Shown piece after piece: positions 20,981 through 24,768 of a DNA stretch of 64,000 nt (position 1 is the stretch's first letter; every line of letters starts with the position of its first letter). The stretch covers positions 5,919,991-5,983,990 of the forward strand of contig NC_057752.1 in assembly GCF_004010195.1 (NCBI RefSeq), in the 5' to 3' direction. The notes beneath the pieces are model-generated. The model saw only the letters and a list, made by a program, of their open reading frames with translations, did not search any database and was not told where the DNA came from. The DNA comes from Chiloscyllium plagiosum. Lineage: Eukaryota. Both the position numbers and the translations under genes were made by a program.

Positions 20981-21122
20981 ATGGGAATCCTTATGTCTCT
21001 TAAACAATACTTTTCAATGAAAGAAATGAGAATTCTCATGGTTGGTCTGGATGCTGCTGGAAAAACTACCATTCTGTACAAATTGAAGCTTGGTGAAATT
21101 GTTACCACCATTCCCACGATTG
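20981..21122 (+). CDS. ARF3: ADP-ribosylation factor (class I, ARF3-like), coding exon 1; exon starts about 20913 with 5'UTR
   Basis: Translates [48 protein letters not shown] (P-loop GLDAAGKT). Kozak accATGg, in-frame TGA at 20972-20974, polypyrimidine+AG acceptor at 20911-20912, donor gtatgt at 21123. Symbol from C-terminus and FKBP11 synteny. Confidence 0.93.
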
Positions 21123-21967
21123 GTATGTTTAGCTCCTCTTCCCTTCTGGAATAATAATTGAAGAGTTAGTACCACATCAAACTATCTGATTTGTATGGGT
21201 TTCACTTTTTAGGTTAAATTACTAACTCCTTTATTTTAGGTAGTATAGCTATGGGCTGAAAGATAATTCTTATATCAAGTCTACAGAAAAGATTTGTGTT
21301 CTCATCAAAAACCAATGCAAGACTATTCTGATTGCACTTTCCAGCACTTAGCCTGTAATTTTTTTAATGCCTTGGTATCACAAGTGTGCATGACATTACA
21401 TAGTATTTGAGAGTTTCTGCCTCTCCCACCCTTGCAGACAGTGAGTTCCAGATTTCCATGTGTGGAACCAGTCTGCAGTTAGTGCGTTTTTTAAAACTGC
21501 ACATAAAAACATCCTTTGTCTGGACACTAGTTACATATTAGTAGTAGTTTTCTTTGCTTGTTCTTTATTATCTCCATGAGAGCATAGCTGTTTGTTTGGA
21601 TAACTGGGCTCAGCCAAATTTCCAACAATGAGAGCAAGTGGAAATAATTCAGTGCTGCCTTGAAGCAGCAAAAGCCTAATTAAATCAAGGTCCTGAAATA
21701 CTGAAGTAAAGATCCTTGCTGGAGGGCAGCTGCTTTAAACCCAATAGAAGCAAATGTTTTTTTTCCAATACTATACCTGATGGTTTGAAAATGCAGCACT
21801 AACTAATGCACAGTTTTCCTTTCTGTGCCTAGTTCTGTCTAATTGAGCTCTGGAGGGACTGCAGTAGTGCTGACCAGCTCTCCTAGCTAAATAGACTTAA
21901 GGTTTCTAGGAGGAAAAAGGAAAATGTGAATAAAGCTGGTAAGAGTAACATGTTTTATTTCTCTCAG

Positions 21968-22078
21968 GTTTTAATGTTGAGACGGTAGAATACAAAAACA
22001 TCAGTTTCACTGTGTGGGATGTTGGTGGCCAGGACAAAATTCGATCACTGTGGCGTCATTACTTCCAGAACACACAAG
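21968..22078 (+). CDS. ARF3: ARF3-like coding exon 2 (111 nt)
   Basis: (G)[36 protein letters not shown](G); acceptor ctctcag, donor gtataa; phase fits neighbouring exons. Confidence 0.95.
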
Positions 22079-22899
22079 GTATAAGAAGTGATTCTGCTTT
22101 TAATTTTCCTTCAGTTACATAAATTGGCCCTATTTAGCATCTCTTCAAGAGAAAGGAAGAGACACTTGTCCTGAGGTTTGCCTCTGGGTTCTGTATATGA
22201 TTCAATGTTTCTTTAATGGTTTGTAGAAATGTAAAGCAAGTTGTCTGCTTTTAATCTTTTTCCATCGCAGAAGGTATTGGGTTAGATGCTTGGTCATTGC
22301 TTGGTTCCTAATTTTTTTTTCACTTGCTCACTTGGAATCATCAGATTGATACCAGGGTTTTAAAAGGGTTAAATGACATGTGCATGATTATACAGTGACT
22401 TTTTTTTCATTAATCTAACACTAGGCAATCTCCTTTCCTGCTGAGAATCCAGAATGGGAGCAGCAGTTTATAGCTGGAGCTAGACCATTCTGGAATGAAA
22501 CTACTTTTTGCAAGTAGTGATTATATCGCAAAGATGCTTAAACTGATTTAAACTCAAGTTTTTGCTTCATAAGATTATTAAAGGGTTTGCAACAAAAGTT
22601 GATGAATAGATGAGTCACAGATCAGCAATGATCTGGTTGAATAGCTGAACATGCTGAAGGAGCTGAATGGCTAACTTGTTTGTGTTCTTTCAGATGTAAG
22701 GTTCCTATTATGTGGAATTAACAGCCCATCTCAAAAGGGCCTACAACAATGAACCATAATATACTGTGTCATAAACCTTGGATGTTGATAGACTTCCTGC
22801 CTGCCCTTGGTCATCATGTTGGTGATTAAGGACTTGAAGGAGAGGCTAAGTGAAAGAAATATTAACCATTTGAGATGAGCTTTCTTTTTAATCCTCTAG

Positions 22900-23024
22900 G
22901 GTTGATATTTGTGGTTGATAGTAATGATAAAGAGCGTGTGTCTGAGGCACGTGAGGAACTGATGCAGGTGCTTGCAGAGGATGAGTTGCGCAATGCTGTT
23001 CTTCTTGTCTTTGCCAACAAACAG
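22900..23024 (+). CDS. ARF3: ARF3-like coding exon 3 (125 nt)
   Basis: (G)[41 protein letters not shown]; acceptor cctctag, donor gtaaat; lies inside ORF 22875..23069. Confidence 0.95.
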
Positions 23025-23754
23025 GTAAATGAACTGTTGGAGTCCAAGGTAGTTGCACTGGATGAATAGTAAAACAGCCAGTACAGAGTCTTTGTTTTGC
23101 ATCAAGCAGTTAATTGCTGGTTTGTGTGGATTGCCACCGATTTGATGTGCATCCCACTCTGAAATGAGCTTTGAATATTAGTGGCACAAATGCATTAATT
23201 TTCCATCCTGGCCTGATGTTTTGTTCCCGATACAGTGACTACTCATGAGTCAATGAGCCAGACTCTCTCCCTGTCCTCCCTCTTGAAAGGGATATGATCT
23301 TTTGGTTTTTCGTATGGATCTTTCTAACTTATGGCTGCACTGCAGAATAAGGCACTTGCAAGTGGCGCAGTTATCACCACTAAATGGCAATCTGCATATC
23401 AACTTGTTTGTGCTTATGTTATGATAAAGCCAACAAGCTATTTTTGGCCTTAACAAATACAGTATTGCAATTGCTCGATGTTGTGTTTTACTATCATTTG
23501 CCTAGTTTGGGAGAATTGCCTTTCAGTATTGATCCATTCTTTTTATTGGAGTTAGATTCTGCTTCCAACTCCTCTTTTCCAGGCAGTATGTCCTAGTTCA
23601 TAACTCTGAATACTTCTCCTTGTCCCACATGTGCTTGCCATTTTTTTTTCTTTTTTTGCTTGCTTCCTTGTTTGAATATTCAACCAGTTCATCAACCCTG
23701 CCCTTGCTCAACTGTCAACCTCTTCAAACAATTACCAGGAATAAACTACCCCCT

Positions 23755-23867
23755 TCAAAGTTTGTGCGAAGATTTGTAGCTCGGGTGCTCGTTGTTGTGG
23801 TTCTGTTCGCCGAGCTGGAAGTTTTTGTTGCAACAAAAACTTCCAGCTCGGCGAACAGAACCACAAC
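23755..23867 (-). mobile_element. Penelope family-A fold-back mini-insertion containing a perfect palindrome
   Basis: 12-bp TSD aaactaccccct (23743-23754 / 23868-23879); the arm matches 5078-5111. Confidence 0.9.
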
Positions 23868-24609
23868 AAACTACCCCCTCCCCAACCATCTCCTGTAGCC
23901 CTCCGATCTGTTGCAATGACTCCAATGTTTTACTCCGTCCCATTTGTTGACTGTGTTCTTTAAGCTTAAAAGGATTTTTATCTCTTCAGCTGTCTTGTGC
24001 CTCTTAAGATGTTCCTTTCTAAAACCATCACTTTTTTAAACCAAGTTTTTGGTTAGCTGCCTTAACTTGAAACCAAGTATCAAAATATTTTTGATTTCAT
24101 GTGAAGTACCTTGGCCTTTTTAACTACGTGAAGGCAGTAAATTAAAATAAAAGTTGATGGTACACTCTCCAGCCTGGATAAACTTAGCATGATGCCTACA
24201 GTTGGCTACATGCCTTCACCTAACTCGTGGGTTGCAGCAGAAGTTCCTTGCATTTCACTTTTTTATAAAATCAAGCCTTGTGTGCTCTTTAACCAGCCTT
24301 GTCAACTTGTTCTGTTAACTGCATGCATTTCTGTACCTACCTCCCCAGAATCTTATTTAGTATTGTACCCTATTTTAATCTTTTTCTATTGTCTTGCAAA
24401 ATTCATCACTTAATACTGCATCAAATGCCTTCTACTGGTCTGTCCCTTTTGCATTCTGCTGCTATCCCCACTGTTTACTATTGTGGCAAGGGATTGGTGG
24501 GGGGTGGTGCTTGTTTTTAATTATGTGGGCTTTGGGAGTAGGAACAGTTTCACAGGCTTCCTGTAAAGCACTGTAATCCTGAGGTATAAATGTTGCCCCT
24601 TCTTCCTAG

Positions 24610-24768
24610 GATCTGCCGAATGCAATGAGTACAGCTCAAATCTCAGACAAGCTGGGCCTGAATTCTCTGCGCAACCGGGTCTGGTATATTCAGGCCACGT
24701 GTGCCACCAGTGGTGATGGTCTCTTCAGCGGTCTGGACTGGTTAGCTGGTCAGTTGAAACACAAGTGA
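24610..24768 (+). CDS. ARF3: ARF3-like last coding exon (to TGA)
   Basis: [52 protein letters not shown]; completes the NKQD motif; acceptor ttcctag. Total CDS 537 nt = 178 aa + stop. WLA.QLK resembles ARF3 (WLANQLKNKK) more than ARF1 (WLSNQLRNQK). Confidence 0.94.

Follow-up and report, generated by a model that had tools for sequence, protein, structure and literature searches.

An intact but fast-evolving ARF3 in the shark Chiloscyllium plagiosum, probably a working gene under relaxed constraint

We analysed a 64,000-nucleotide (nt) stretch of the Chiloscyllium plagiosum genome (contig NC_057752.1, positions 5,919,991 to 5,983,990 of the forward strand; hereafter the window), which carries a four-exon ARF gene at the position of ARF3. 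The gene is intact and spliced, and its protein has accumulated many changes relative to ARF3 of bony vertebrates, as have the ARF3 proteins of other sharks and rays. We concluded that the window gene is probably a working shark ARF3 under relaxed constraint. Class-I ARFs are a standard example of near-invariant proteins, and missense variants of human ARF3 cause disease (PMC9652361). A previous sequence-only reading of the window had described the gene as an accelerated or neofunctionalised ARF3 and not a pseudogene, and the fate of each part of that description is given with the corresponding results.

Divergence was counted over a core of residues 16-177, with chimpanzee ARF3 (P0135) as the reference. 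The window ARF3 showed 16 core changes, compared to 0-1 in all 11 bony-vertebrate ARF3 sequences and 13-23 in each of eight elasmobranch ARF3s. The latter comprise the window protein, four further shark sequences (P0037, P0039, P0041, and P0044), and three ray sequences (P0187, P0362, and P0363); these seven bear the database names ARF3-like, ARF1-like, or ARF3a. Another protein, P0365, that has E138Q but S174 and was unplaced in the tree, was excluded. In relative-rate tests with a lamprey outgroup, the window ARF3 had 16 changes vs 0 in chimpanzee ARF3 (p=6e-5), and two ray sequences gave 14 vs 0 and 13 vs 0. The presence of the acceleration in all eight sharks and rays suggests that it began before the shark-ray split. 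Shark and ray ARF3s differ from each other at 13-26 core positions, and the five orectolobiform ARF3s at up to 21, compared to 0-4 among three shark ARF1s. No ARF3 of a chimaera, skate, lamniform, squaliform, or carcharhiniform was present among the 120 matches listed per search or in the cluster look-ups. All 17 differences in residues 16-180 that the sequence-only reading had listed against human ARF3 were matched exactly against the chimpanzee protein, as were the missing last lysine and the identity of residues 16-75. The acceleration that it had proposed as lineage-specific is real but broader than this lineage, since it is common to all eight elasmobranch ARF3s, and the ARF2 and ARF1 genes of the same genome have drifted too.

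The own ARF1 of this shark has 7 core changes relative to mammalian ARF1 (p=0.008), and its ARF2 has 24, or 22 vs 1 when tested against rhino ARF2. ARF3 evolved faster than the own ARF1 (p=0.025) but not significantly faster than the own ARF2 (18 vs 11, p=0.19). For comparison, the lamprey sequence is identical to mammalian ARF1 over all 162 core residues, and a tick ARF1 has 3 changes relative to mammalian ARF1, fewer than any of the shark's own class-I ARFs. Three hand-picked controls, used in place of a genome-wide background, gave the following differences: a RAB11 exon (1/64), RHOB (5/182, ignoring an engineered mutation of the PDB entry), and RAB5B from the window contig (3/71). The window ARF3 was more diverged than RHOB (p=0.007).

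The ARF3 identity of the gene, as claimed by the sequence-only reading, is supported by its position. Three Wnt genes are located at 5.72-5.80 Mb of the window contig C43 (L037-L039), approximately 140 kb upstream of ARF3; two of them pair with two Wnt genes on contig C7, and one is a singleton. Partly on the basis of this pairing, we take them to be Wnt6b, Wnt10b, and Wnt1; the Wnt6-type member of the cluster has been published as Wnt6b on the elasmobranch X. On the other side, FKBP11 lies on the same (plus) strand at 56913..61257. Its exon at 61170-61257 has FKBP11 as the best PDB match (E=5.7e-7), with 19 of 29 residues identical to the solved protein, and scores E=0.0013 for FKBP_C, below the curated cut-off; a signal-peptide-like exon at 56913-57010 may belong to the same gene. 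The human order is WNT1-WNT10B-ARF3-FKBP11, and the horse and bat database models that contain ARF3 but are named FKBP11 agree with the adjacency of these two genes. The placement between the three-Wnt cluster and FKBP11 thus identifies the window gene as ARF3. The class-I loci on contigs C4 and C33 are each found near a Wnt3-type/Wnt9-type pair, the usual neighbourhood of ARF1 and ARF2. The C4 protein grouped with two shark proteins named ARF1 (support 99/99), and the C33 gene is ARF2 by position and elimination. Exons 2 and 3 are 111 and 125 nt long at all three loci, whereas the class-II genes are split differently and ARF6 is intronless. In addition, A174, a marker residue of ARF3, is present in all eight elasmobranch ARF3s and in neither own paralogue. 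Both A174 and K178, the reported determinants of trans-Golgi network (TGN) location, are present in the window ARF3.

The four coding exons, all on the plus strand and separated by GT..AG introns, give 537 nt (178 residues plus stop), and the product is letter-for-letter identical to XP_043537771.1 (P0035), named 'ADP-ribosylation factor 3-like' for Chiloscyllium plagiosum; the gene is therefore already annotated by NCBI. Exon 1 (20913..21122, coding 20981-21122 with the ATG at 20981) contains Gly2, a shortened N-terminal helix, the G1 motif GLDAAGKT, and the start of switch I. Exon 2 (21968..22078) contains switch I, the interswitch, the G3 motif WDVGGQ, and switch II, with P76S as its single change. 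Helix 3, with R97K, N101S, R109Q, M110V, and D118N, and the start of G4 fall in exon 3 (22900..23024), and exon 4 (24610..24768) contains the back face and the C-terminal helix with 11 of the 17 changes, retains W172, A174, K178, and K180, and ends in TGA. Exon translation and a motif check both agree with the earlier description of four clean exons, intact G1, G3, G4, and G5 motifs, and no frameshift. That description was correct for the coding exons but incomplete for the gene, as it missed an upstream non-coding exon of 67 nt (15687..15753, plus strand) and the 3' untranslated region (24769..26606, plus strand). The latter is covered by contigs X1 and X2, which extend to ~26600, and by X19 reads piling at 25100-25763, and has poly(A) hexamers near 25252, 26122, and 26270.

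Splicing, proposed earlier as a check, was seen at every joint. The 15753-20913 joint (GT..AG, acceptor placed from the sequence) occurs in nine raw X19 reads and in contigs X1, X2, and X7, the exon 1-2 joint in 11 raw X19 reads, and the 2-3 and 3-4 joints in an X12 contig; a 2512-nt X2 contig spans exons 1, 2, and 4, and its gap of 125 nt corresponds to exon 3 in length. X1, X2, X7, and X12 were taken as RNA by guess; no run is recorded as RNA, tissues are coded, and run X20 gave no reads here. In comparison with organism C, at most 7 of 534 coding positions (1.3%) differ vs 92 of 2354 intron positions (3.9%; p=0.0015), a comparison of totals, with most exon rows hidden in the difference table, and not a ratio of nonsynonymous to synonymous rates (dN/dS). 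The lower coding divergence shows purifying selection on ARF3; among the coding differences, C>T at 20990 in organism C would alter the encoded protein. With an unbroken frame, spliced RNA, and coding divergence below that of introns, the gene shows none of the marks of a pseudogene, as the sequence-only reading had judged. The protein scores 256 bits against PF00025 (Pfam Arf; cut-off 22.3), and its AlphaFold model has a predicted local distance difference test score (pLDDT) of 74, with ARF1 and ARF3 as the top Foldseek matches (E ~1e-22, template modelling score ~0.8). Residues 1-12 have pLDDT<50 in the model; the N-terminal helix has Gly2 and Ser6, and its hydrophobic moment is 0.36 vs 0.44-0.46 in mammals.

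Fifteen of the 16 core changes of the window ARF3 are located in residues 97-177 (binomial p=0.0005). The concentration in the C-terminal half noted earlier is thus real but not special, as 90 other class-I cores show the same skew (650 vs 55 differences). These background cores were drawn from matches to the window protein, so that counts of site variability are rough. The changes fall preferentially at positions that are also variable in other animals (Fisher p=0.04 for the window ARF3; p<0.05 in six of the eight ARF3s). The segment before K16 is rewritten and has 13 residues instead of 15. The G1, G3, G4, and G5 motifs, residues 45-54, and W172 are retained in all eight elasmobranch ARF3s, while E138 (always Q) and H150, N152, Y167, and E168 (in several states) are changed in all eight. 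Among these proteins Y167 is replaced by F, C, or D, E168 by S, N, or K, and N175 by G, D, A, or S; sites that go on changing in this way are better explained by relaxation or recurrent selection than by a one-time functional jump. A136 is changed in the window ARF3 and in five of the eight overall, and A137 is kept. The MXXE motif is broken to VLAE in the window ARF3 and two close relatives but intact in the other five; judged from these sequences, its loss in bamboo and epaulette sharks is recent. MXXE is a described feature of class-I ARFs and not the basis of the class, and the class-I assignment of the window ARF3 rests on orthology. P76S and M110V are confined to Chiloscyllium and Hemiscyllium among the elasmobranch ARF3s.

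Compared to vertebrate ARF3 (PDB 8p50_B and 6ii6_C; chimpanzee P0135), the window gene shares the position between Wnt1/10b-type genes and FKBP11, G1-G5, switch I, the interswitch, W172, A174, and K178. In contrast, it encodes 178 instead of 181 residues, with a shorter, rewritten N-terminal helix, 17 changes in residues 16-180, VLAE for MXXE, and P76S in switch II. The other elasmobranch ARF3s resemble it in length (178-179 residues), A174, E138Q, the loss of Y167 and E168, and changes at H150 and N152. Mammalian ARF2 (3-4 core changes relative to ARF1) and teleost arf2a (P0283, 11 changes) likewise show back-half drift with the switches kept. However, mammals and teleosts with a divergent ARF2 retain near-invariant ARF1 and ARF3, whereas no class-I gene of this shark is conventional. 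Eight ARF loci came out of the genome searches: three of class I, two of class II, and three of ARF6. A conventional class-I ARF, be it a second ARF3 or an ARF1, was not found among the best candidates, to which the scoring is limited, although this is not proof of absence. This answers the earlier call to look for a second, conventional ARF3 in the genome.

The window ARF3 likely still acts at the late Golgi as a myristoylated GDP/GTP switch, with likely relaxed constraint letting the back face and N-terminal helix drift. By analogy with its family, it would be myristoylated at Gly2, activated by a Sec7 guanine nucleotide exchange factor (BIG1/2 for mammalian ARF3), and inserted into the membrane through its helix, and it would recruit AP-, GGA-, and COPI-type effectors via the nearly unchanged switch face. 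The TGN location of mammalian ARF3 needs BIG1/2 and A174/K178 (PMC12350278), and M110 of MXXE is required for membrin binding and early-Golgi targeting (PMC2171843). M110V, found in three bamboo and epaulette shark sequences, breaks MXXE with A174 and K178 kept, which is predicted to give a further trans-Golgi bias. A possible role of Y167 in membrin binding was dropped, as '167' does not occur in the partial text of PMC2171843. The presumed cause of the relaxation is the overlap of three class-I paralogues, with ARF1 most constrained and ARF2 and ARF3 freed; redundancy among Arf proteins has been reported in cells (PMC8579194).

Faster-X evolution may add to the drift of ARF3. The window gene is likely X-linked, as RAB5B and a hedgehog gene lie on its contig together with the three Wnt genes, and X linkage in five elasmobranchs has been published for Wnt1, Wnt6b, Wnt10b, and Dhh (10.1101/2025.03.13.642935). 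The X of sharks corresponds to human chromosome 12, and its Ka/Ks is reported to be elevated, a faster-X pattern (10.1101/2022.10.17.512540). ARF3 fits this pattern in having raised protein divergence on a human-12-homologous chromosome. It departs from it in that the effect on ARF3 far exceeds that on RAB5B of its contig, and the ARF2 gene, located elsewhere, is equally fast. A purely chromosome-wide effect (faster X or a small-chromosome rate) with nothing specific to ARFs is very unlikely. The published rise in Ka/Ks would favour it, as would the own ARF1, which is on a large contig and shows no significant excess over RHOB (7/162 vs 5/182, p=0.56), but RAB5B is conserved, and a modest factor cannot yield 16 changes where all 11 bony-vertebrate ARF3s have 0-1. 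It is similarly very unlikely that the gene is at an early stage of decay, or that it is an extra paralogue wrongly assigned while the assembly lacks the true ARF3. In favour of this, the searches score the best candidates only in an assembly of 101,977 contigs, the tree leaves class-I orthology unsorted, and the ray sequences were assigned on grounds other than synteny; this explanation is nonetheless largely refuted by an ARF3 that is intact in eight species, spliced, constrained in its coding sequence, flanked by ARF3 synteny on both sides, and equipped with A174.

The claim of a neofunctionalised ARF3 was not borne out, as the sites keep switching state and only E138Q is fixed in the eight proteins. 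A neo- or subfunctionalisation in the shark-ray ancestor, in which the back face (E138Q, loss of Y167 and E168) and the N-terminal helix were altered for a different membrane or partners, such as in AP-1 unlocking or oligomer contacts, is accordingly unlikely. It would account for the fixation of E138Q and the replacement of Y167 and E168 in all eight at sites near-invariant elsewhere, and the back face (A136, A137, W172), where A136 is changed in five of the eight, helps to unlock AP-1 in an allosteric role (PMC5540999). However, the sites go on varying after the first change, W172 and A137 are retained, and back-half changes also occur in ARF2, both class-II genes, and the ARF6 copies. Recurrent positive selection from pathogens, whose bacterial or viral proteins exploit ARFs of the host as cofactors and would push exposed surfaces to change while the switches stay fixed, appears quite improbable. 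Several states per site among close species would fit it, as would the replacement of the tyrosine at the Y167 position in four of the eight ARF genes here (ARF3, the C18 class-II gene, and two ARF6 copies) and the solved ARF complexes with bacterial proteins among the fold matches, known by title only. In contrast, coding divergence is well under intron divergence, and many such partners bind the switch face, which is unchanged. A broader scenario is possible but doubtful: a shared pressure, be it partner co-evolution or pathogen conflict, may have remodelled the back face of all class-I, class-II, and ARF6 proteins, and the X-linked ARF3 may have specialised as a switch of the late Golgi, its back face presenting a new surface (E138Q, no Y167/E168). 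If so, sharks and rays would be jawed vertebrates running a Golgi without a conventional class-I ARF, in effect a mutagenesis experiment by nature on a protein that hardly varies in other groups.

Several observations weigh against a working ARF3 under relaxed constraint, either in its orthology or in its cause. The protein tree did not join elasmobranch ARF3 to bony-vertebrate ARF3 and left class-I orthology unsorted, and the approximately unbiased test does no more than fail to reject an ARF3 clade of elasmobranchs and bony vertebrates (p=0.48). The comparisons made here do not separate relaxation from positive selection. Seven of the 16 window changes (P76, R97, M110, E138, T140, Y167, and E168) are at sites varying in at most 1 of the 90 background class-I cores, and neutral tolerance does not obviously predict so many; none of the seven own-ARF1 changes is at such a site. 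E138Q is the sole substitution fixed in all eight elasmobranch ARF3s. As for the contribution of the X, the ARF2 gene lies on a different contig and evolves as fast as ARF3, so that X linkage is not needed, and the back half of RAB5B differs from human at 3/71 positions compared to 15/81 for ARF3 (p=0.01), so that a faster X alone is insufficient. The class-I tree proposed as a check in the sequence-only reading was thus informative in part, as the elasmobranch ARF3s cluster together in it (82/76) but class-I orthology is not sorted; it used 36 of 45 rows, with nine dropped (seven core-redundant vertebrate rows, a coral, and a ctenophore), and its bootstrap had not settled. Ray ARF3 orthology rests on shared changes, this weakly supported group, and one database name.

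The gain is modest, as the gene is annotated, the faster X is known, and no new function is demonstrated; of greater interest is the drift across the whole ARF family in elasmobranchs. By tolerating 13-23 changes in ARF3, a slowly evolving lineage reveals which surfaces of the protein can be dispensed with, and the elasmobranch ARF3s are ready-made variants for probing the back face, MXXE, the N-terminal helix, and why vertebrates retain several near-identical ARFs. No paper on shark ARFs was found in the literature searched, which lacks most subscription papers. The word 'shark' is absent from the partial text of a family-wide ARF study (PMC8358228), and ARF3 from the partial texts of two shark X papers (10.1101/2025.03.13.642935 and 10.1101/2025.02.26.637739) and the supplement files examined; other preprint supplements may list ARF3 as X-linked.

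Further observations concern the other ARF genes of the same assembly. The ARF2-position gene (G000:C33:34781983-34794229, minus strand; L029, L030) is intact and encodes 178 residues. It has diverged further than the other class-I ARFs here; its N-terminus is short and hydrophobic, its G5 is altered (CAN), and its switch II carries P76T and R79K. Gene conversion between ARF3 and ARF2, considered for their similar N-termini and the change of P76 in both, was rejected, as fourfold sites differ by 0.59-0.65 in all three class-I pairs. The ARF1-position gene (G000:C4:35021772-35034644; L027, L028) has a rewritten N-terminal helix besides its seven core changes; catshark and smooth-hound ARF1 have changes at five of these sites as well, and share the replacement residue at four. 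Four processed ARF1 fragments of 202 nt (L003 on C70719; L004, L005, and L007 at C8:5.66-5.90 Mb) span the spliced exon 3-4 junction, are 96.5-97.5% identical, and sit in a repeated unit of 1-3 kb with 92-95% identity; such processed copies are a sign of ARF1 germline expression. The two class-II genes (G000:C18:32.94-32.96 Mb and C23:34.06-34.08 Mb) are both diverged in the back half, the C23 gene strongly, and no third class-II locus was found in the genome searches, in which best candidates were scored. ARF6 is present in three intronless copies (L008 on C41, L009 on C9, and L010 on C98478) with back-half changes, and one copy differs from solved ARF6 at 8 of 175 positions. A RAS-like intronless copy (L061, C5:123855056-123855487) with changed G1/G3 motifs and a shortened end is likely a processed pseudogene.

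Within the window, a CpG-rich stretch at 9001..9500 (no strand assigned; CpG observed/expected 1.04, the top 500-nt bin within 1-22000) is the likely ARF3 promoter or first exon, with no joint to it seen. Downstream of ARF3, a 3455-nt X2 contig and X19 reads of opposite orientation (27756-28400) cover 26708-28400 and beyond, which suggests a convergent minus-strand transcript in which no coding exon was recognised.

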